A stretch of DNA of 64,000 nucleotides from a phage, in the NCBI GenBank assembly GCA_036436775.1, contig GCA_036436775.1_3676.1, one strand, 5' to 3'. The notes beneath the pieces are model-generated. The model worked only from the letters and a program-made list of their open reading frames with translations. It searched no databases and was not told the DNA's origin. Both the position numbers and the translations under genes were made by a program. Position 1 is the stretch's first letter. Every line of letters begins with the position of its first letter. Shown here piece after piece: positions 28,758 to 62,940 of this stretch.

Positions 28758-28794
28758 TCCTTGTTAACTGCGTGGTATTTTAACAGGGTTTAAA

Positions 28795-28839
28795 TTTACT
28801 TTATTGATGGCCCTGGAGTCAAGGCCATCTAAAAATAAA
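28795..28839. repeat. 45-bp exact repeat, copy 1 (TTTACTTTATTGATGGCCCTGGAGTCAAGGCCATCTAAAAATAAA)
   Basis: Identical to copies at 32521 and 33141; starts 2 nt after a - strand stop codon; contains palindrome GATGGCC...GGCCATC with TTGACT in the loop. Confidence 0.9.
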
Positions 28840-28841
28840 TT

Positions 28842-29042
28842 TTACAGGCCTACAATCTCTTTGATTCGTTTAACCGCTGCCTCAGCGCCTTGGGGGTAAA
28901 AATTATGGTAACCAATCACGCGAGTGATACTAATCGCCGTTTGATGATCTTCATAATCGCCCTTGAAGATTTCTTGACCATCGACCAGAACAGCCAGTTT
29001 TTCATCTTTTTTAAAATTGATAACGCGAATATTCTTGCTCAT
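28842..29042 (-). CDS. Hypothetical protein
   Basis: 66-aa ORF with GAAGAGGAGAAAG RBS. Confidence 0.6.
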   Translation of the reverse strand: MSKNIRVINFKKDEKLAVLVDGQEIFKGDYEDHQTAISITRVIGYHNFYPQGAEAAVKRIKEIVGL

Positions 29043-32480: not shown

Positions 32481-32520
32481 GGTTTTAACTCCTCATTAGT
32501 TCAGTGTTAACAGTGTAAAG

Positions 32521-32565
32521 TTTACTTTATTGATGGCCCTGGAGTCAAGGCCATCTAAAAATAAA
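32521..32565. repeat. 45-bp exact repeat, copy 2
   Basis: Identical to 28795-28839; starts 2 nt after the stop of the 32567-32908 gene. Confidence 0.9.
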
Positions 32566-32566
32566 T

Positions 32567-32908
32567 TTATTCGTTTTCTTCCAGTTCTGAAAGCTCTTCT
32601 TTCACTTCCTCAAGCTCTGTCTGCAATTCCTGGTATTCTTCATCGTCCTCAATATCCAGGCTGTCGATGTAGTCGCTAAATCCGCAGCGGTAAGCGATAG
32701 GATCTAGCTCCTTGAGGATACGCGACGGAAGAAAAGAAATGTTTCCGATCATAATTTCGCCGTAGATCTCGTCTAACCATTCATCATAGTTTTCGTCGTA
32801 CTTGTCCTCGTCGATTTCAAAGTTATCGATCTTATTCTCAAGGTCTGCGATCTGTTTTTTCAGCGCGGCGATCTGCATGGCTTTTTCTGCGGCGGTCATA
32901 GTAGTCAT
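32567..32908 (-). CDS. Highly acidic coiled-coil-like protein
   Basis: 113-aa ORF, strongly D/E-rich, AAAGGAGAAAACAC RBS. Confidence 0.6.
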   Translation of the reverse strand: MTTMTAAEKAMQIAALKKQIADLENKIDNFEIDEDKYDENYDEWLDEIYGEIMIGNISFLPSRILKELDPIAYRCGFSDYIDSLDIEDDEEYQELQTELEEVKEELSELEENE

Positions 32909-33106: not shown

Positions 33107-33140
33107 CTTCAAGCCTCCTTTTTAGCTTAACTGGGATTAG

Positions 33141-33185
33141 TTTACTTTATTGATGGCCCTGGAGTCAAGGCCATCTAAAAATAAA
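33141..33185. repeat. 45-bp exact repeat, copy 3
   Basis: Identical to 28795-28839; starts 2 nt after the stop of the 33187-33582 gene. Confidence 0.9.
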
Positions 33186-33186
33186 C

Positions 33187-33582
33187 TTAGTAAGTTTTCA
33201 GTACTTTCCCGTCCAGTCTGTCAAGCTGGATCTCGATAGCTGCAGAAAACCTATTATAAACCACATCGCCCATGGAGTCCAGCCAATCTATGACGTTATA
33301 CACCTGCTCTTTGTTCTTGCAAGTCCGGATCCGTTTCATTACGTAAGACGGATCAATATTAGTGCTCTCGTTGTTGTGGTCATGCGCCTGGCCTGCTGCA
33401 TTAGTTATAGATTTTACAACCACCTGAAAGGGCTTTAAGGTGCCTTTTGCGTTCATCTCACGCGCTTTTGCGGCGCGGTTGTTATATGTTACACAACGGC
33501 GGCAAATGTTGACTAAATGCATATCAATAATTTTTTCATCGTTTGCCAGTTCGTTCATGATGCGGCGTACGTTCTTATTCAT
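33187..33582 (-). CDS. Hypothetical protein
   Basis: 131-aa ORF with AAAGGAAAAAGATC RBS; 5'UTR hairpin GGCGGGAA-TGT-TTCCCGCC. Confidence 0.6.
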   Translation of the reverse strand: MNKNVRRIMNELANDEKIIDMHLVNICRRCVTYNNRAAKAREMNAKGTLKPFQVVVKSITNAAGQAHDHNNESTNIDPSYVMKRIRTCKNKEQVYNVIDWLDSMGDVVYNRFSAAIEIQLDRLDGKVLKTY

Positions 33583-43552: not shown

Positions 43553-43906
43553 TTAGTGACAATCACCCCAGTTACGACCACACAAGTATTCACCTGTGAT
43601 CTGGAACGGGACTCCCATCATTTTAGAAGCTTGCCAGAAGCAATGCACCACCATTTCACCTACAGGGCTCCAGATAAGTTCAAGCTTTCCGTCATCGTTC
43701 AGGATAGGATCGTACACCGTGTTTCCGTCTCTGTCAACCACTTCGTTTCCGTCCTCATCCTTGCGTGCTTTTTTGTACTTATGACCGTCGAACACATGAA
43801 GTTTGGCCTCCTGCTCTGCCTTAAATGCTTCCAGTTCTTCAATTGTGTCGAAGGTGTACACAGTCTTATACTTCGGTGTGTCAGGGACTTGAAGTTGGTA
43901 CTCATC
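43553..43906 (-). CDS. Family-A DNA polymerase, C-terminal segment (candidate exon 2, motif C onward)
   Basis: Frame begins DEYQLQV...; ends GRNWGDCH, matching the G.NW..H terminus of Pol I/T7 gp5 as recalled; no ATG or RBS of its own. Confidence 0.7.
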   Translation of the reverse strand, partial: DEYQLQVPDTPKYKTVYTFDTIEELEAFKAEQEAKLHVFDGHKYKKARKDEDGNEVVDRDGNTVYDPILNDDGKLELIWSPVGEMVVHCFWQASKMMGVPFQITGEYLCGRNWGDCH

Positions 43907-44182
43907 CAATAGTTCAGGTAGGTCGTTAAGCTACCCCGCACCATTACGTGCATAGCCATACGTTTTCACGTAGGATCGGACCATCTCATATTCCTATGAT
44001 AAGCAACCACAGGAATCCTCCCATTTCGACCGCACTTGCTGGTCTACTTCCTTTCGGAATGGCCTCTGAGCGTTCGCTCTTTTGAGCGCTTCGTTGCGGA
44101 TTACCTTGCCATAAGGTTTAGGCTTCCCGCAGTTAAAGAGGTTATTCGACATAGATTACTCTATGAAGCCACAATGTTATTT
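43907..44182 (-). ncRNA. Candidate 276-nt group I intron splitting the DNA polymerase at motif C
   Basis: Upstream exon ends in U (codon CAT=His); intervening sequence ends in G before GAT GAG; joining gives YHDEYQLQV; internal GACCA/UGGUC pairing; contains stop codons. Confidence 0.5.
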
Positions 44183-46606
44183 ATGGTAATAAATAATACG
44201 GCGAACACCTTCATCGTACCACCCACGCTTCACCATTTGGTGGTGCATGAGTATCCCAACTAAGTCACACAGCGATGCACCACCATTCTGTTGGTATGCA
44301 TTAAGTAAAGAGTGTTTAGATCGGGTCCAGATAGCATGACCATCAAAAGAGTAGATAAACTTCTTACCAGTTGCTTCCCAGAATTTCTCCAGATCCTCTT
44401 TGCGCCCCTTAAGACCGGGGTTGGCATCCCAAAGCGCATCGATTACCCTTTGTCCCAACTCTGGAGAGATGTCCAGCATATCTGCAACTTTATCTTTTTG
44501 TGCCCCGTACATAACCCCATACGTGATAGGTTTACCGTCGTTACGGGACACCTCTCTACCTGCTACTTTCGTATATGCCTCAGCATTGTTTTGGTGTGCA
44601 TCTCCGTTACTTACAACATCGTAATACAGGCCGTTGTCGAACTCAAAGGCACCCCAAGCCCCGATAAGCTGCTCTAAGTTGGACCCGTCAATACCGATCT
44701 CAAAGTATCCTGGAGGAACACCCCACAAGCTACGCATCTCTTTACCCATAACCACTTTAGGAGATGGTTTAGGCATGTTTGCACAAATACTGTGTTTCTG
44801 TCTGGAAGTGTTTGTCAGCCCAGAACTTTTAGCAGGAAGCTTATGGTCAATCTTCAAACGTGGGTGATTAAGAAGACCAGTATCAACCTTATCCTCCTTG
44901 ATTGGATCAAGGACCGATCTGCGGTTTCGCAATGATAACCACAAGACGATATCTTTAGCCATCTCTCCGTTCAATTTTTCAAGATTCGGACACAGGTGTC
45001 CAAACGTATCTTTCAGTTGCGGAGAAGTAATAAGTGCTCTGGCTTTTCTACGTATTTTCCCGAATACTTCCTTTTTAATCCTTTCAGAGTTAGGAAAGCT
45101 TCGGAACTTGTGCACAGTTGTCTGGAACTTGGCATCAGTTTTGTTCCAGAAGTTGATAATCAGGTCACAATACTCTGACTCTAAAAGCTCGTCCATATAT
45201 GCATATACTCGTGCATCAACATCCGCATCAGGTAGAGCTTTCTTCTTGCTATCTTTAGTTACATCTTTAGTTCTCCACATTGTCGGTAGCCAGCCAGCAC
45301 TGATCAGATACCGCTTAATGTCGTCCTGATTGCTGATTTTCATAGGTATCTTGCAGTCCGGCATTCGCTTCTGCTGTAGATCACTTATTGCCTGATCCAT
45401 CAGCTCTTTAGGCAAAGGGTGGGGTGTGGAAGTGCCCTTAATATAGCCTCTCAAGAAATCAGCCATCTTATCGGGGTCTTTGCAGCCCATCTCTTCACAC
45501 CATTTTATCCCTATCTTGCTGACATCCCCTGTAGAGGTAAATGCTCGCTTAGGCGGGGCTTTGAACTCTAAAGCGCTCATGTCTACAGGATAGCCAAGCT
45601 TATCTTTTAACCATTTCCAACCATTATTAGAGATTGTCCCGTCTTGGTTAAACGGCTTTTCAGGGAACTTGGGCCGCTGAGACATTGACAGCTCTTTTAA
45701 AGGCAGCTGTGGTTCAACACGATCAGCGATTTCTTTCATCCACGCATCGCAACGGTCACGTAAAGCAATAGCTCCATCTATGTCGAAGTATACACCCTGA
45801 CGGGCCTGCAGCTCCATCAGGAAGTGCTGCAGCATGCCTCGACGTAGTGCGTTCTTCCAGGTGATCTTCTTGAACCCTTTCGGCTTCTCTTTGGCTGGAT
45901 CGTACATAAAGTTCTGCATGTCAGATTTGCCGTAGAATACACCTTTTGATTCCGCTACCAGCTCTTTCCAGAGCAGCTCCTGGATGATAACGTCCTCGAA
46001 TACACGATCCACATACTTCCACAACGGAAGATCGCGCCAGTCATCAATTTGAACTTTCTGGTTACCAAGGGCGTAGCCCCATGCCATAAGGCCGTGAGGA
46101 CCAACGGGCTGCATTTTCTTAGTAACCGGGTTGAATACAGAATCCGGACAACCTTTTGGTAAAGGGCGATCAGGCCACAAGATTCGGCTCATCGCCAACG
46201 TATCAAACAGATTAACCTGGTGGTCGTTGATAGTCCCCATACACTTAGGGTCACGGAACATATCAAAATGAATACCGGATAATCTTTCCATCAGCATAAA
46301 GTCATAACTGTAGCAGTTATGGCAGTTCAAAGCTGTTGGTGACCAGTCAGAATTTCCTGTAAGCCAACCTTCCAACTCCGAAAAATCTGCTATGCGAACT
46401 TCAAAATCTTTATAAAGAGTTTTCTTTGCCAGAATAAAGTTCTTAGCCTTCTCTATATCCTCTTCAGAGTAGTGTGTGCGGTCATTTAGAGGAAGGAACA
46501 GCATAAAACGGTTCTTATTCAGCTCTTTAAACAAGCCGCAGTGATAATAAAGATCTAGGTCTTCTAGTAAACCAGAGGCCTCAAGGTCGAAAGACCACAT
46601 ACTCAT
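44183..46606 (-). CDS. Family-A DNA polymerase, N-terminal segment (3'-5' exo domain, palm/fingers, motif B)
   Basis: FDLEASGL exo motif; Pol-A motif B KPITYGVMYGAQ; ORF runs into stop 8 codons past the point where motif C is expected; AAGGAGAACTGTAT RBS. Confidence 0.85.
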
Positions 46607-56643: not shown

Positions 56644-57828
56644 TTAAGCTTTAGCCAAAATGGCGCTAAACTCTTCACCAAACTCTTTTACAATCTTCAT
56701 CAGGTTTGGGTATGCTTTGATCAGCTGAGCAACAATCTTGTCACGACCTTTACCGATAAGCAAGGCATTTCCTAAGGCATTAGGTTTCATCATCGCCATA
56801 AAGACTGAGAATACAAAATCTCGGTTCTCGTCCTTGAAGTTTTCCCAAAGGAAATCGAGGAAGTTTGCCACGCAGCTGACAAGATCTTCGTCTGAGATAC
56901 TTGCATTTTCCATCATATTACGAATAGCGATACAACCTTCAGATCCAAGAATCCACAAGATGTCTGGCTGTTTAGGACCTACGTATTCTTTGCAACCTCC
57001 TGCCATAATCCGACCGATTTCCGGTAAGTTGCGTTTCTTGGTGTGGTAAGTCCAGATCTCTACCGCTGCAGTGTGACCAATAGCGCCTTGCAGAAGAACA
57101 CGGGCCATAGCGTCAGAAATAATACCACTGTCAAAATCGTGCAAAATATCAGATGCAGCAACCCAAGATCGCGGTGTGGCAAAAGATGGACAATTAATCT
57201 CAGCCATGGCCTCATAATTATCGATAGCTGATGGAACTCTTTTCAGATATCCAATTACAGAGGAGTGCACCCCATTAAGGAATGCGTAGTCCTCAATAAA
57301 CACCTCTGCATTGCTTGTAACTTCTACAATGATAAAACGGTTAGCCAGAGGGGCTTCGAGCGCCGAAAGAACCGCACCATCTGTAGAACGGTTACCAGCA
57401 GCCACAAAAACAGAGCCTTTAGGGAATGCATAGGTGCCGCACTTGTGGTCGAGCATAATTTGCATTGCAACCTTTTGCAGGTAGTTATCTGCATGAGTGA
57501 GCTCATCAAGAAAGATAATTCCGCTCCAGTCAGGATCCGCAGGCCAAAATTCTGGAATTGCAAACACTGTACGTGTAGTTCCATCCGCTTCTACAGGGAT
57601 AGGTAGCCCAGATAAGTCGGCAGGATCTTTATCTGACAGCCGCACGTCAACTAGGTTGTCATCTCGCTCACCGAACATATTGTCGGCGATCTGCTTCATC
57701 ACCTGGCTCTTTCCCACGCCCATTGGTCCTAAAATCAGGACAGATCGGTTATGACGCTGGGCAAACTGAATGATAGCTGGCAACTCACGGACAGTGATTT
57801 GACCACTTTCAAATACGTTTCTTGACAT
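56644..57828 (-). CDS. MoxR-type AAA+ ATPase
   Basis: 394-aa ORF; Walker A LILGPMGVGKSQ, Walker B IIFLDELTHAD. Confidence 0.7.
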   Translation of the reverse strand: MSRNVFESGQITVRELPAIIQFAQRHNRSVLILGPMGVGKSQVMKQIADNMFGERDDNLVDVRLSDKDPADLSGLPIPVEADGTTRTVFAIPEFWPADPDWSGIIFLDELTHADNYLQKVAMQIMLDHKCGTYAFPKGSVFVAAGNRSTDGAVLSALEAPLANRFIIVEVTSNAEVFIEDYAFLNGVHSSVIGYLKRVPSAIDNYEAMAEINCPSFATPRSWVAASDILHDFDSGIISDAMARVLLQGAIGHTAAVEIWTYHTKKRNLPEIGRIMAGGCKEYVGPKQPDILWILGSEGCIAIRNMMENASISDEDLVSCVANFLDFLWENFKDENRDFVFSVFMAMMKPNALGNALLIGKGRDKIVAQLIKAYPNLMKIVKEFGEEFSAILAKA

Positions 57829-58524: not shown

Positions 58525-58782
58525 TCAGTCCACCTCTTCTTCTCGTTGTAGTTCAAGGTACCCGTAGGTCTGGACATCTTGAAGGGTGTGGAACTCCCCA
58601 TCTGCCGCTAAGGCACGAACAACTTGGCACAAAACCTTATGAGGAACTTCATCCAGACCCAGATTCAGTGCAGGGAACACCTTATCTAAGTCAACAAAAT
58701 AAACGAACTGTAGCTCACCAGCTTCAAAAGGTGTATCTTCAATAAACATCTTCTCGGCATTAGTCAAGATCTGCACTTTCAT
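58525..58782 (-). CDS. Hypothetical protein
   Basis: 85-aa ORF with GAGGAGGTAGA RBS. Confidence 0.6.
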   Translation of the reverse strand: MKVQILTNAEKMFIEDTPFEAGELQFVYFVDLDKVFPALNLGLDEVPHKVLCQVVRALAADGEFHTLQDVQTYGYLELQREEEVD

Positions 58783-59138
58783 TATTCTACCTCCTCTTCT
58801 TTTTCTTCGGCATTAGTTTCATGGCTACCCCACTCTGGAGTTTCCACCTCGATAGTAAACTCACGCACTACACGGTAATTGCCCATGAAGCGCTCCACTT
58901 CGTCAAGGCTTACGGAGAAGCCATTGGCAACCAGGTCTGCAGCACCCTCTTCTACCAGGTAGTCCAGATTGGCTTCCAAAGCTTCAGGCTCAAACCCTGT
59001 TAATGCAATCAGATAACCTTCCCCTTCATCAGGGAGGACAATACATCCCAACTGATTTTCTTTGAAAAGGCAGTGACCATCATTGTTGATTGGGTGTTCA
59101 TTGCAGTAAATAGCTGCACGATAAGTAACTTTAGACAT
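58782..59138 (-). CDS. Hypothetical acidic protein beginning MSKVTYRA
   Basis: Start set at ATG with AAGGAGACC RBS; first 8 codons lie in a 27-bp inverted repeat shared with the + strand gene at 60979. Confidence 0.55.
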   Translation of the reverse strand: MSKVTYRAAIYCNEHPINNDGHCLFKENQLGCIVLPDEGEGYLIALTGFEPEALEANLDYLVEEGAADLVANGFSVSLDEVERFMGNYRVVREFTIEVETPEWGSHETNAEEKEEEVE

Positions 59139-59141
59139 CGG
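59115..59141 (-). repeat. 27-bp perfect inverted repeat, copy A (CCGATGTCTAAAGTTACTTATCGTGCA on - strand)
   Basis: Reverse complement of + 59115-59141 is identical to + 60979-61005; covers a start codon and first 8 codons. Confidence 0.9.
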
Positions 59142-59151
59142 CAAGGTCTCC

Positions 59152-59430
59152 TTAGGCAATTGTCATTTTACATTCTTGAAATTTTAGCACAAGACGGTGA
59201 TTGTGTCTAGTGTCTAAAAAGGTTTTTTCAACCATCAGGCACACGGTATAACCGTCCATCTTGTTGACAACAAAATCTCCAGGGTGAGGGAGGATGTCCC
59301 CCGGATTGGGGAAACATAGTCCACTCAGAAAGGCATCGTCAGTGGTGGACTTAATAGATTTCCACACATTGTCTGCCTGAACATGTTCACCGACGTAATA
59401 TACATTACCACATGCCTTCATCATAGTCAA
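59152..59430 (-). CDS. Hypothetical protein
   Basis: 92-aa ORF, ATGA overlap with upstream gene. Confidence 0.55.
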   Translation of the reverse strand: MTMMKACGNVYYVGEHVQADNVWKSIKSTTDDAFLSGLCFPNPGDILPHPGDFVVNKMDGYTVCLMVEKTFLDTRHNHRLVLKFQECKMTIA

Positions 59431-60326
59431 ACCCTCGCATAAATTAAACTTGTATCAGTATACTTCTTTAATGGACAGATATCCGGCCCGTAGATGTAGT
59501 CATTGAACACCTCATCTATCCAAAGACTGCTCTTATACCCCATCATCTCCAAGACATCCATCTCTTCTTTAGTGAATTTATCACCGCTCTTGCAAGATGT
59601 CAATACCTCATTCTGTACTCTTGCTACCTCGAAGCGGTTATTGGCAATATCACTATTGGCGATCAAATACTCACCCAAAGGGTGTGCAGCATCAAAGATG
59701 CACAAAGGTCGGTTGACGTAATAGTCCCCGGGTGTGTAGAAATTATTCAGGTCCTTCACCAGAACATTCTTATCCGTCACCTCATTTATAACATCATGCA
59801 TACCGCACATCTTTATATGCTTGAGGATTCCATCTCCCATCACAAAATAAAAACTTGCTGAGATACCCTCGACATAGATCTTACTAGATCCGTTGTAGTT
59901 GTATTTTACGCGAATACTCACGGGGGTTTTTCCTGTCGCGTTAGCCATCATCCAAAGAAATGGCAGCTCATACTTCTCCTCTGAGGAAACAAAAGGTGAA
60001 GTTGCCAGAGATCGAAAACCTCCAGAGAAGTTGAAAGTTACAGAACCGCTCCGGCGGTATGATACTGCGTATTCTACTTTTATATCAACATATCCGTTGG
60101 AGTAAGTATGCCCTCCATTATCAAGGTATGTCCACTTATCAGACCCGGATACCAATCTACGCTCAATAACCTTCATCACTACAGGAATTAGCGGGTTGGT
60201 ACAAACCGCTTTTGAAGTAGCTTTAGCATCTAAAGCCTCGTAAATTGCAGAAAGGATGTCCCCAGCTGAAAGATTTGTTGTTATGTCCTGTTTCCACCGC
60301 GTACTAAAACTGTTAAGATTTGCCAT
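59427..60326 (-). CDS. Hypothetical protein (299 aa)
   Basis: ORF with AGGAGCACCCCC RBS; first gene of the - strand block, divergent from promoter at 60409. Confidence 0.6.
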   Translation of the reverse strand: MANLNSFSTRWKQDITTNLSAGDILSAIYEALDAKATSKAVCTNPLIPVVMKVIERRLVSGSDKWTYLDNGGHTYSNGYVDIKVEYAVSYRRSGSVTFNFSGGFRSLATSPFVSSEEKYELPFLWMMANATGKTPVSIRVKYNYNGSSKIYVEGISASFYFVMGDGILKHIKMCGMHDVINEVTDKNVLVKDLNNFYTPGDYYVNRPLCIFDAAHPLGEYLIANSDIANNRFEVARVQNEVLTSCKSGDKFTKEEMDVLEMMGYKSSLWIDEVFNDYIYGPDICPLKKYTDTSLIYARV

Positions 60327-60408
60327 GAGGGGGTGCTCCTATGTTAGTTTTATTTCTAATGGGTGCACTATATCGGAGATTCAGAGTAAAGTCAACACGT
60401 TTTTGATG

Positions 60409-60437
60409 TTGACATCTATTGAAACAATTGATACGAT
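60409..60437 (+). promoter_or_regulatory. Sigma70-like promoter TTGACA-N17-TACGAT
   Basis: Hexamers read directly; 30 nt upstream of ATG 60469. Confidence 0.55.
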
Positions 60438-60468
60438 TTCTTCACTTACAGAGCACGAGAGACAACTC

Positions 60469-61446
60469 ATGAATCTTGAAAAATATTATACACCAGAAGA
60501 GTTAGAGCGCCTGCTCAAAAAATATAGACGCAAACAGAATAATGCACGGAAACGAGATATAGAGTTCGACCTGTCATGGGAAGAATACCTCCTATTTGGT
60601 AAAAAACTTTTAGGAGATGGAGTATGCGACTATACCCTTATACCTTTTGACATGCACACAGATGAAAACGGGCTGGGAAATCCTTTCTACCCATCTCTGG
60701 AGCGGATAGATGATGAAGGTCCTTATGCGGTTGATAACTGTTGTGTGGTGGGATTGAGATGCAACTCTCTAAAGGACTGTCTGGTAGATAAAAAGACTGC
60801 AGTCTCGATTAAAGACGAAACTGATCGAAAAATTGTCCAGCAGATGATGCTCCACCTGAGCGAAGAGCGTATGGAGAAATTGAAAGGTGATTATACTTTT
60901 GAAGATTTCATCTTGCAATATGGAACGGAAGAGGATAAACTAGCACTCTTTGACGAAGAAGAGGAGGAAGATATGCTACCGATGTCTAAAGTTACTTATC
61001 GTGCACCCAAGAAGCACATTTCCGACATTGTAAACGAGCCTATCACAGAAGAGATTGAAGAAATGACGCAACAGGTGCATGAAGAGGAAAAAGAGACTCA
61101 GTGGGTCGAAGAGGAGCTTACAGAAGAGGTTCCTGCACTACCTGATGATGTTGAGATTGCCAAAGCTTACACTTTCTATTGTCAAGCGTTCTACGATGTA
61201 GGTATGAAAGTTGATCTGTCGTTCAGCCAATTTAAGAGTTCGTATATTCGCAAATGCTGTGCTTTAACTGGTGAACGTCTTGGAGCTGGACTTAAACCCC
61301 TGTTGGTGACCGACTGGAATAAAGGTTTCACTAAAGGAAACTTTATGGTAGTATCTCCAATTATGGAGAAAGCTATGACAGATCTCATGAAGACCACCCG
61401 CATGACAATGACCGAGTTGGCAGGTATTTTCAAACACGTTAAATAA
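60469..61446 (+). CDS. Hypothetical protein, possibly two in-frame cistrons (second start near 60975-60987)
   Basis: Continuous ORF from ATG 60469; internal strong GAGGAGG RBS + ATG at 60975 followed by MSKVTYRA inside the 27-bp repeat. Confidence 0.55.
   Translation: MNLEKYYTPEELERLLKKYRRKQNNARKRDIEFDLSWEEYLLFGKKLLGDGVCDYTLIPFDMHTDENGLGNPFYPSLERIDDEGPYAVDNCCVVGLRCNSLKDCLVDKKTAVSIKDETDRKIVQQMMLHLSEERMEKLKGDYTFEDFILQYGTEEDKLALFDEEEEEDMLPMSKVTYRAPKKHISDIVNEPITEEIEEMTQQVHEEEKETQWVEEELTEEVPALPDDVEIAKAYTFYCQAFYDVGMKVDLSFSQFKSSYIRKCCALTGERLGAGLKPLLVTDWNKGFTKGNFMVVSPIMEKAMTDLMKTTRMTMTELAGIFKHVK
60979..61005 (+). repeat. 27-bp perfect inverted repeat, copy B
   Basis: Identical to the reverse complement of 59115-59141. 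Confidence 0.9.
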
Positions 61447-61479
61447 TGACAGGGGCCAATGGCCCCTTCTGGAGTTTTA

Positions 61480-62940
61480 ATGGATAGCAGAAGTTCAGAA
61501 ATCATTGCCTCACAGAAAGATGATGCCTTGAGAATGTTGCAGGCTGCACGTATGTATCTCCTTGAAAAGCTGCCGTTTTATGGCACACTACTGTCAGGGT
61601 TGCAGTTCGTAGAAAACCACACATGGTGCTCCACCATGGCAACCGACCATAAACGCATCTATTACAGTCCTGAGTTCATTATGGGATTGGCTGATGAACG
61701 CAAGGCTATTCTTAAGGCTTCTCTGACTGACGAGCAGTTTGAGATGGCTGAAGTTTTCTATTCCCCAAAATCTGTGAAAGAGGTGGCCTTCCTTCTGTCA
61801 CATGAGGTGGGGCATATTATCTGTGATCACCTAGTCCGTGGTAAAAGCTTTGAGCCGGAACTGTTCAATATTGCTTGTGATCACGTTATCAACACAGGTC
61901 TTGTGGTTGACTTTAGCAAGCCTCCTTGTGTTTTCTTCCCGAAGGGGAAAAGCACTACGTTCGTGAAAGGTAAACCTTTTGGCTTCTTAGCCAGCTGCTA
62001 CTGCGATATGAAGTTTCATGGATGGATTGCTGAGAACGTTTATGCAGTTCTTGATAAGCAAAGAGATCAGAATAACGGTAAAAGTAAGAACGGTAAAGGT
62101 GAGAACTCTCAAGGGGATAAGCGACAAACAGATGATCACATGAGTGGGAACGGTGGCACCAGTGATGATCTTGGAAAAGCTATGGGGTATGATCAGCCAC
62201 AACCTGTAATCAGCCAATCTGATAAAGATCAGGCCATGCAGGACTCTGGTGATATGCTGGAGGCAGCAATGCAAGCGTCCGGAGGCCGTTGCCCTGAGGC
62301 GGTGCGTGAGTTTGTCAAGAACAGAGGTAAGCCTGTAATCAACTATATAGACATCATTAAGCAACGCATGTTGTCTAAACGAAAGGCTGAACTGACCTAC
62401 AGAAAACCTGGTCGCCGATCTGGGTCTTTGACCAGCACAATGCGAAAAGTTGGGGCTATAAACAAGAACCAGCACGTTATTGTTCCTGGTCGTAATCCGG
62501 AAAACACTATAGATATTGTGGTGGCTTTAGACGTTTCTGGCTCGATCTCTCAAAGAACTTTAAAGAAAATGTTCAATGAAATCACCGGATTGTGCAATCT
62601 GTATAAAGAGTTTAAGGTTACAATGTTCTGTTGGTCAACTGAGGTTGGAGAGGTTAAAGTATACACTCGCGGCAACATAGACGAGATGATTAACTATGAG
62701 GTCCACTCAACATGGGGCACAACAGCTGCTTGCGTGTTCGAGTATCTGGATGCCAACATACCGAATGCAAAAGATGTCATCGTCCTGACCGACCTATACT
62801 TTGAGCATAACTTTGAACAAAAGGCTGTTGACAACAAGTGGAAAAAGTACGATACTTTATGGGTTCTCACTGAAGGGTATAATAAAAATTATATCCCGAG
62901 CTTTGGGAAAACTGTGGAATTAATCGAGTACGCTAAGTAA
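61480..62940 (+). CDS. HExxH metallopeptidase-like N-domain fused to vWA (MIDAS) domain protein
   Basis: N-terminal SHEVGHIICDH (HExxH) and C-terminal VVALDVSGSIS (DxSxS) vWA motif; start set at ATG 61480 (first ATG lies in a hairpin). Confidence 0.65.
   Translation: MDSRSSEIIASQKDDALRMLQAARMYLLEKLPFYGTLLSGLQFVENHTWCSTMATDHKRIYYSPEFIMGLADERKAILKASLTDEQFEMAEVFYSPKSVKEVAFLLSHEVGHIICDHLVRGKSFEPELFNIACDHVINTGLVVDFSKPPCVFFPKGKSTTFVKGKPFGFLASCYCDMKFHGWIAENVYAVLDKQRDQNNGKSKNGKGENSQGDKRQTDDHMSGNGGTSDDLGKAMGYDQPQPVISQSDKDQAMQDSGDMLEAAMQASGGRCPEAVREFVKNRGKPVINYIDIIKQRMLSKRKAELTYRKPGRRSGSLTSTMRKVGAINKNQHVIVPGRNPENTIDIVVALDVSGSISQRTLKKMFNEITGLCNLYKEFKVTMFCWSTEVGEVKVYTRGNIDEMINYEVHSTWGTTAACVFEYLDANIPNAKDVIVLTDLYFEHNFEQKAVDNKWKKYDTLWVLTEGYNKNYIPSFGKTVELIEYAK

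Follow-up and report, generated by a model that had tools for sequence, protein, structure and literature searches.

A perfect inverted repeat shared by two unrelated genes of a Vequintavirus phage is probably the scar of a single templated mutation

Introduction

Why should two unrelated genes of a phage share 27 identical nucleotides in opposite orientation? The case lies in a 64-kb stretch of DNA (hereafter the window) from a Vequintavirus (rV5-like) phage with ∼118 sequenced relatives. An earlier note, made from the sequence of the window, had placed the repeat on the start codons of two divergently oriented genes and proposed selection or recent recombination as its cause, with a translational operator, a recombination or gene conversion site, or an invertible 1.8-kb segment as options. 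We propose, with a probability of roughly 0.85, that the repeat is the fossil of one microhomology-bounded templated mutation and probably a neutral scar without a function of its own.

Results

The repeat described earlier was confirmed: the 27-mer CCGATGTCTAAAGTTACTTATCGTGCA occurs exactly twice in the window, at 59115-59141 on the minus strand and at 60979-61005 on the plus strand, with 0 mismatches. No third copy was found in the window at up to 3 mismatches, the number of matches expected by chance was 0 (100 shuffles), and the pair is the sole perfect inverted repeat of at least 20 nt within the 64 kb. In the complete 139-kb genome of the relative FFH2, which also carries both copies, a 29-bp form of it is the longest perfect inverted repeat, and the 27-29 nt tract identical to the start of gene gp008 is present exactly twice in the window as well as in the whole FFH2 genome. 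Both copies are read as MSKVTYRA and the identity extends to all synonymous positions, after which the two proteins diverge completely, in agreement with the earlier statement that the genes are unrelated.

The left copy starts 3 nt before the ATG of the gp008 homologue (58782-59138, minus strand, 118 aa, PHROG 12908, restricted to Vequintavirus), at the end of the 5' UTR, and runs through codon 8 with an exact match. The annotated ATG of this gene (59138-59136, minus strand) thus lies inside the repeat, and its Shine-Dalgarno sequence AAGGAG is located 9 nt further upstream. The right copy is found within the gp011 homologue (60469-61446, plus strand, 325 aa, PHROG 3118), which consists of two conserved domains and a variable linker between them. 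It is situated in this linker (60950-61130, plus strand), which is hypervariable, acidic and rich in indels in the protein alignment, and its ATG at 60982 is in frame within the 325-aa ORF. Of the two start codons that the repeat was thought to occupy, only that of gp008 therefore stands. Similarly, the "strong internal RBS" in front of the right copy exists as the motif GAGGAGG (60961-60967), but its distance of 14 nt from the repeat ATG is a poor placement. The motif is part of a run of Glu codons in the acidic linker, lies 5 nt from a different in-frame ATG at 60973, and is also present in relatives without the right copy.

The 1837-bp segment between the copies (59142-60978) encodes the gp009 and gp010 homologues on the minus strand and the first 170 codons of gp011, and contains a divergent promoter region at 60327-60468. 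None of gp008, gp009, gp010 and gp011 had a Pfam match and the PHROGs search returned family names only, while the record names for gp011 homologues vary between "anti-sigma factor", "anti-termination" and "HNH endonuclease". An internal duplication within gp011 was considered and is unsupported, since BLASTP revealed no significant similarity between its N-domain and C-domain. We also rejected the idea that the right copy preserves an old start codon left over from a gene fusion: the two-domain ORF is continuous in all genera of the subfamily, and relatives without the right copy have the same ATG as an ordinary Met codon.

The states of both sites in the relatives were read from MAFFT alignments. 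The left copy is present in 117 of 117 relatives that possess gp008, tblastn matches to gp008 begin at residue 1 in all 117 records, and in 14 of 14 sampled Vequintavirus relatives the copy is found with occasional single-base changes. The right copy is restricted to 28 of the ∼118 records, which represent 26 distinct genomes, and 27 of the 28 are identical over 81 nt; a 137-kb metagenome contig carries it in addition. Hence, the comparison with related genomes that had been suggested as a check showed both genes to be kept, but not the right copy: ∼90 relatives retain the genes without it. These non-carriers have a 12-nt-longer unrelated sequence between the same flanking bases, the site reading CC(A/G)ATG-CAGGAYTTTAARAAYTTYATGGCWRAY-CGTG(C/G)A or, continued by GCC, CGTG(C/G)AGCC.

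The non-carrier linker, as read in L010, shares two stretches with the inverted gp008 start, ACCGATG (7 nt) and ATCGTGCAGC (10 nt), which flank an unrelated core of 25 nt. In carriers, gp008 sequence stands between these two anchors in place of the core: 25 nt of linker are replaced by 13 nt of gp008 sequence, the newly copied core of the right copy being TCTAAAGTTACTT. The result is a net in-frame deletion of 12 nt and a protein change from QDFKNFMAD to SKVTY. The bases beside the core were already donor-like in non-carriers, except for single changes just inside the anchors in some lineages (A/G in CCRATG, C/G in CGTGSA). Chance alone readily gives inverted quasi-repeats of 7 + 10 nt, with ∼150 per 64 kb of shuffled sequence and ∼10 of these having arms less than 3 kb apart. 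Three haplotype-specific substitutions adjoin the tract, TCA to CTA upstream and GCC to CCC and AAC to AAG downstream; the donor provides no template for them, and they need either later drift or error-prone synthesis.

Since the non-carrier version is common to at least three diverged linker alleles with differences at several, largely third-codon, positions, it is old. A second copy of the non-carrier core was detected neither in the window, with up to 3 mismatches allowed, nor in the whole FFH2 genome, with up to 5 allowed. In flank trees with midpoint rooting only, the carriers fall within the non-carriers and do not form one clade on either flank. Outgroup polarisation failed because gp008, which was not found outside the genus Vequintavirus, is genus-restricted and the gp011 linkers of Seunavirus, Avunavirus and Mydovirus do not align with that of Vequintavirus, so that the derived state of the right copy is based on distribution, nesting and midpoint rooting. 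Among carriers, divergence reaches 7-9% in neighbouring genes and is 0-4.8% in the linker, and this smaller difference in the linker indicates that the allele probably had one origin and was then spread by recombination. Between carriers and non-carriers, the linker downstream of the patch (61006-61130) differs by 13.6-19%, compared to means of ∼5-6% (range 1-12%) in the flanking domains.

The perfect repeat is not of the same length in all carriers. It comprises 29 bp in Murica, inoa, FFH2 and the metagenome contig (in Murica, inoa and the contig as TACCGATGTCTAAAGTTACTTATCGTGCA), 27 bp in the window and 24 bp in ECP32. The shortening from 29 to 27 bp in the window is due to a single window-specific substitution at 59142, where the plus strand has C and all other sampled genomes that align gap-free here have T. 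At the edges the two copies differ from each other within one genome and do not co-vary, and judged from these alignments the edges are eroding independently in different carriers.

The orientation of the 1837-bp segment is the same in every relative. The 116 full-length relatives, with the 28 carriers among them, are collinear without exception, and neither these genomes nor the one metagenome contig, all of them consensus assemblies, represent an inversion isomer. In the parental arrangement the gp011 linker and the repeat are followed by CCCAAGAAGCAC, and in an inverted one they would be followed by GCTATTTACTGC. We also searched with a degenerate pattern that covers the junction in either arrangement. 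IMG/VR gave 0 matches and the metagenomes a single contig in parental orientation, a weak negative result as these assemblies are consensus-only. In line with the earlier observation that the window has no recombinase, the annotation of FFH2 lists no invertase, integrase or site-specific recombinase. The same annotation has only two ∼100-aa "transposase-like" ORFs, which are located ∼66 kb away.

Discussion

We propose that an ancestor of about one quarter of the known Vequintavirus genomes had a gp011 linker that already contained ACCGATG and ATCGTGCAGC, and that, in the course of replication or recombinational repair, a DNA 3' end annealed to the gp008 start through one of the two microhomologies. 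The donor may have been the gp008 start of the same genome, at a distance of 1.8 kb, or that of another genome copy replicating alongside it. Approximately 13-29 nt of gp008 would have been copied before the growing strand switched back to its first template at the other microhomology, converting an imperfect inverted repeat into a perfect one of 29 bp, and the allele would then have spread through the vequintaviruses via ordinary homologous recombination. As the site belongs to a weakly constrained acidic linker, the change was probably tolerated, and the patch itself may well be neutral. The molecular route could be a replicative template switch, short-patch ectopic gene conversion or ssDNA annealing; the arm distance of 1.8 kb favours a cross-fork, in-trans or repair-associated route over hairpin fold-back. 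Of the two causes offered in the earlier note, selection or recent recombination, the comparative data thus point to a past copying event resembling gene conversion and speak against the functional options.

It seems improbable that the direction of change was the reverse. In that case the perfect repeat would have been present at the base of the genus and maintained by selection or concerted evolution, and non-carriers would have acquired their sequence through a later replacement. An unrooted tree permits either direction on the branch between carriers and non-carriers, and an alignable outgroup is absent, but the carriers are nested in non-carrier diversity and polyphyletic in both flanks. 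A replacement would also have to account for a non-carrier core that is shared by three or more linker alleles and lacks a source elsewhere in the window or in FFH2. Furthermore, the patch is invariant in 27 carrier records while the start of gp008 itself varies between lineages (TCC, TCA, GTC, GCT), and the edges do not co-vary, both of which speak against a reversed direction. That the identity reflects coincidence, convergent selection for the peptide MSKVTYRA or an assembly artefact can practically be dismissed, short as the element is: the chance expectation is zero, all synonymous positions are identical, and the same allele was recovered in 28 records from many laboratories and in the 137-kb metagenome contig.

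The two functional readings are contradicted by the ∼90 of ∼118 related phages that keep both genes without the right copy. A translational operator or initiation region, by which gp008 and gp011 would be co-regulated or a free gp011 C-domain would be made, is suggested by the in-frame ATG within the copy and the purine-rich stretch before it. We nevertheless regard this as very unlikely, since the right copy is missing in about three quarters of the relatives with both genes, the Shine-Dalgarno sequence of gp008 lies outside the shared tract, and GAGGAGG amounts to mere Glu codons that non-carriers have as well. RNA folding of both copies and one non-carrier site gave no significant or shared structure either, with z-scores of -1.3 and -0.65. 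In the case of a phase-variation-like switch, the repeats would be the recombination sites of an invertible 1.8-kb segment. A flip would join the gp011 N-domain to gp008 and leave the gp011 C-domain as a separate product downstream of the gp008 ribosome-binding site. Both resulting ORFs would be intact, since the repeats are perfect and inverted and keep the reading frame of either gene, and at 24-29 bp they approach the minimal length reported for homologous recombination. Such a switch is nonetheless highly unlikely in view of the uniform orientation in genomes and metagenome, the missing right site in relatives that keep the flanking genes, the lack of an annotated recombinase in FFH2, the decaying repeat edges and the conservation of two-domain gp011 as one ORF across the subfamily. 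There is also only a slight chance that the repeat of the carriers serves as a substrate for rare homologous inversion during infection. In that event, minority genomes with an in-frame gp011N-gp008 fusion and a free gp011 C-domain expressed from the gp008 ribosome-binding site would arise, a newly born domain-swapping polymorphism that is independent of a recombinase and open to later selection.

With the templated scar as the preferred reading, a candidate genetic switch or operator is dropped from consideration. Instead, the locus represents a clean natural case of templated mutation in a lytic phage, bounded by microhomology and acting over a long range (1.8 kb, or in trans). Donor and recipient can both still be seen, as can the original linker in ∼90 genomes and the altered one in 28. 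Templated events of this kind can yield perfect repeats of designed appearance, change a number of codons in one step and give misleading candidates in scans for regulatory or recombination sites. The locus may be used as a reference case for recognising such events, by comparison of relatives and a search for prior microhomology at the ends of the tract.

Inverted repeats of ∼26-34 bp surround the kilobase-scale invertible segments of phage Mu (G segment, Gin), phage P1 (C segment, Cin) and Salmonella (Hin). The arrangement described here resembles them in that a segment of similar scale is flanked by inverted repeats and a flip would swap in-frame protein parts, but it has no annotated recombinase gene (in FFH2), a single orientation in the genomes, and a repeat that is unconserved and decaying. 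Another parallel is bacteriophage T4, for which Schultz and Drake in 2008 reportedly described templated mutagenesis from imperfect direct or inverted repeats, the laboratory mutants in a reporter gene being said to include complex mutations copied from ectopic imperfect donors in either orientation. Both cases concern a large lytic phage and an ectopic, imperfectly repeated donor; unlike the T4 laboratory mutants, the allele described here is natural and established in about one quarter of a phage genus.

Template switching that turns imperfect inverted repeats into perfect ones is documented in E. coli and yeast (PMC7202029, PMC8604942). The vequintavirus repeat shares with this quasipalindrome mutagenesis the one-step perfection of a repeat, a tract bounded by prior short homologies, a multi-nucleotide change over several codons, and the phylogenetic finding of a derived perfect against an ancestral imperfect repeat. 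Classical quasipalindrome switching prefers short spacers (PMC8604942), while here the arms are 1837 bp apart, a net 12 nt were lost and the donor was possibly another genome copy in the infected cell. Compared to ordinary gene conversion, the anchors of 7 and 10 nt are far shorter and the site bears no sign of a break. In template switches during double-strand-break repair, as described in one account (PMC12891019), a DNA end dissociates, copies a short stretch of an alternative template and returns. The untemplated substitutions near the vequintavirus tract would fit error-prone repair synthesis.

Results

The 27-mer CCGATGTCTAAAGTTACTTATCGTGCA occurs twice in the window without mismatch, at 59115-59141 (- strand) and 60979-61005 (+ strand), while no third copy was found there with up to three mismatches allowed. 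Shuffled sequence is expected to give no such match, and the pair is the only perfect inverted repeat of at least 20 nt in the 64 kb; the observation of the earlier note is correct, and the identity is far beyond chance. The start codon (59138) of the gp008 homologue, a 118-aa ORF (58782-59138) with a Shine-Dalgarno AAGGAG 9 nt upstream, falls within the left copy, and the right copy lies in frame within a 325-aa ORF, the gp011 homologue (60469-61446). In agreement with the earlier reading, both copies encode MSKVTYRA, after which the two proteins diverge. The proposed strong internal ribosome binding site exists as GAGGAGG (60961-60967), but it belongs to a stretch of Glu codons in the gp011 ORF and stands 14 nt from the ATG of the repeat (60982) and 5 nt from another in-frame ATG (60973).

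The window belongs to a Vequintavirus (rV5-like) phage. A 3.1-kb query around the repeat matched 120 phage records at 88-96% identity, 116 of them in a single collinear match. Sixteen GenBank records of the MG0656xx series (e.g. H6, H23, H52-H55) are named 'Campylobacter phage' with host Campylobacter jejuni; their identity to rV5-like phages of E. coli over the repeat region is 92-96%, and these host labels look doubtful. In the numbering of phage Murica, a MoxR ATPase and then gp005-gp010 lie on the - strand; beyond a divergent promoter region, the + strand carries gp011 and the gene for a DUF2201 metallopeptidase/VWA protein. The genes gp005-gp011 form a variable cassette flanked by the MoxR-type AAA ATPase (56644-57828) and the DUF2201/VWA protein (61459-62940), a pair usually found together that is encoded here on opposite strands. 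In RefSeq both the VWA protein and gp011 carry the label 'HNH endonuclease'; for the VWA protein, the domain matches do not support it. The gp010 homologue (59427-60326, - strand), called 'putative alpha-1,3-fucosyltransferase' in other annotations, gave no match to Pfam. It is the stretch most diverged from the closest relatives, with 7-16 differences per 100 nt (∼11 on average) from Murica in its first 500 nt compared to 0-3 in most neighbouring bins, which suggests a mosaic or fast-evolving gene.

The gp008 family (PHROG 12908) is restricted to Vequintavirus and its product has no assigned function. gp011 (PHROG 3118) shows weaker similarity to the T4 Srd and 'sigma-70 decoy' families and is named, depending on the record, 'anti-sigma factor', 'anti-termination' or 'HNH endonuclease'. 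In other Vequintavirinae genera, full-length homologues share 23-40% identity, and their alignment reveals two conserved domains separated by an acidic, indel-rich linker that is unalignable across genera. The right copy is located in this linker. Compared across the window and loci L001-L015, the linker (60950-61130) falls into no fewer than three or four allele types within the genus, which differ by 14-19% and several indels, while the flanking domains differ by ∼5-6% on average.

The alignment comprised the window and 14 relatives from across the genus, with ECP32 and a metagenome contig added later. All aligned genomes have the left copy, with occasional single substitutions (TCC, TCA, GTC, GCT, CCT), and gp008 matched from residue 1 in 117 of 117 records (tblastn). 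Of the aligned genomes, those with the right copy are the window, Murica, inoa, ECP32 and the metagenome contig alone; a search with an 81-nt query recovered it in 28 records, 27 of them identical. The remaining ∼90 records carry GATATGTCACC(A/G)ATG-CAGGAYTTTAARAAYTTYATGGCWRAY-CGTG(C/G)AGCC at this site, encoding MQDFKNFMA(D/N)R. This version is common to at least three diverged linker alleles, differing at several, largely third-codon, positions, and a second copy of its core was found neither in the window nor in the complete FFH2 genome.

In non-carriers such as typing phage 14 (L010), the recipient site has ACCGATG (7 nt) and ATCGTGCAGC (10 nt) in common with the inverted gp008 start even without the patch; between these two stretches lie 25 unrelated nt in the recipient and 13 in the donor. 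Carriers have the donor sequence in place of the core, a net in-frame loss of 12 nt that yields the perfect 29-bp inverted repeat TACCGATGTCTAAAGTTACTTATCGTGCA. Next to the tract, three changes have no donor template (TCA to CTA, GCC to CCC, AAC to AAG). Recent recombination or gene conversion, one option of the earlier note, is in this respect right as history.

Neighbour-joining trees of the two flanks nest the carriers among FV3-type non-carriers and do not group them as one clade. Divergence between carriers reaches 7-9% in neighbouring genes, equal to that between carriers and non-carriers, while in the linker carriers differ by 0-4.8% among themselves and by 13.6-19% from non-carriers. 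Carriers are nearly alike in the linker but diverged in neighbouring genes, which indicates that the patch-bearing allele has a single origin and moved by homologous recombination onto different backgrounds. Murica, inoa, FFH2 and the metagenome contig have a perfect repeat of 29 bp; a private substitution at 59142 shortens it to 27 bp in the window, and it is 24 bp in ECP32, whose two copies differ upstream of the ATG. The repeat edges therefore drift independently, and neither homogenisation nor selection on the repeat itself is apparent.

Discussion

We conclude that the 27-bp repeat marks a single templated copying event in a linker that tolerates change, rather than a working element. The earlier note had also considered an inversion of the 1.8-kb segment as a switch. 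This fails the refuting conditions set in that note itself: all 116 full-length records are collinear, every carrier included, and ∼90 relatives lack the right copy. A degenerate pattern covering both the parental and the inverted junction gave no match in IMG/VR and, in metagenomes, a single contig of parental type. The annotation of FFH2, a carrier genome that is complete, lists no invertase, integrase or site-specific recombinase. Inversion could still take place rarely within a population, though with low probability. The shared operator fails the conditions of the note as well, and an internal start in gp011 does not hold either: three quarters of the relatives that keep both genes lack the right element, the gp008 Shine-Dalgarno falls outside the copied tract, and RNA structure is not significant at either copy (z-scores -1.3 and -0.65). 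A gene-fusion relic was rejected: throughout the subfamily both domains lie in one uninterrupted ORF, and non-carriers already have the Met codon.

Judged from the alignments, the carrier patch is a microhomology-bounded templated mutation signature. An imperfect inverted repeat would have been 'corrected' against its gp008 partner, and Schultz and Drake reportedly described the same kind of templated correction in phage T4 in 2008. Such correction by quasipalindrome template switching is documented in E. coli and yeast (PMC7202029, PMC8604942). Shuffled sequence contains ∼150 chance quasi-repeats of 7 + 10 nt per 64 kb, ∼10 with arms less than 3 kb apart, so the substrate needs no special explanation. 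While described events prefer short spacers (PMC8604942), the arms here are unusually far apart at 1.8 kb, which makes a simple hairpin fold-back unlikely. More plausible routes are a cross-fork switch, a switch to a second copy of the genome within the same infected cell, or short-patch conversion during repair. The three non-templated changes would have arisen either by drift after the event, the linker being fast-evolving, or by error-prone synthesis during it. The scar is a fresh instance of a known mutational process with a well-preserved before-and-after record.

Other repeats and intron

A group I intron (Rfam, 43957-44192, - strand, 64.7 bits, full-length model) splits the DNA-polymerase gene (43553-46606, - strand) into an 809-aa ORF (44177-46606) and a 118-aa ORF (43553-43909). 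The corresponding gap in carrier phage FFH2 contains an ORF for an HNH endonuclease (gp079); that of the window has only ∼268 nt, so the intron here appears to be an ORF-less version. A 63-nt intergenic direct repeat is present in three copies (28781-28843, 32507-32569, 33127-33189; 86-100% identical) and includes a hairpin (GATGGCC...GGCCATC) with an A/T-rich run after it. The element, also repeated in FFH2, probably serves the small-ORF early region as a recurring terminator/promoter module. The longest perfect repeat of the FFH2 genome is a 329-nt direct repeat (19179 and 19515), directly downstream of a 5.6-kb gene with Ig-like domains.
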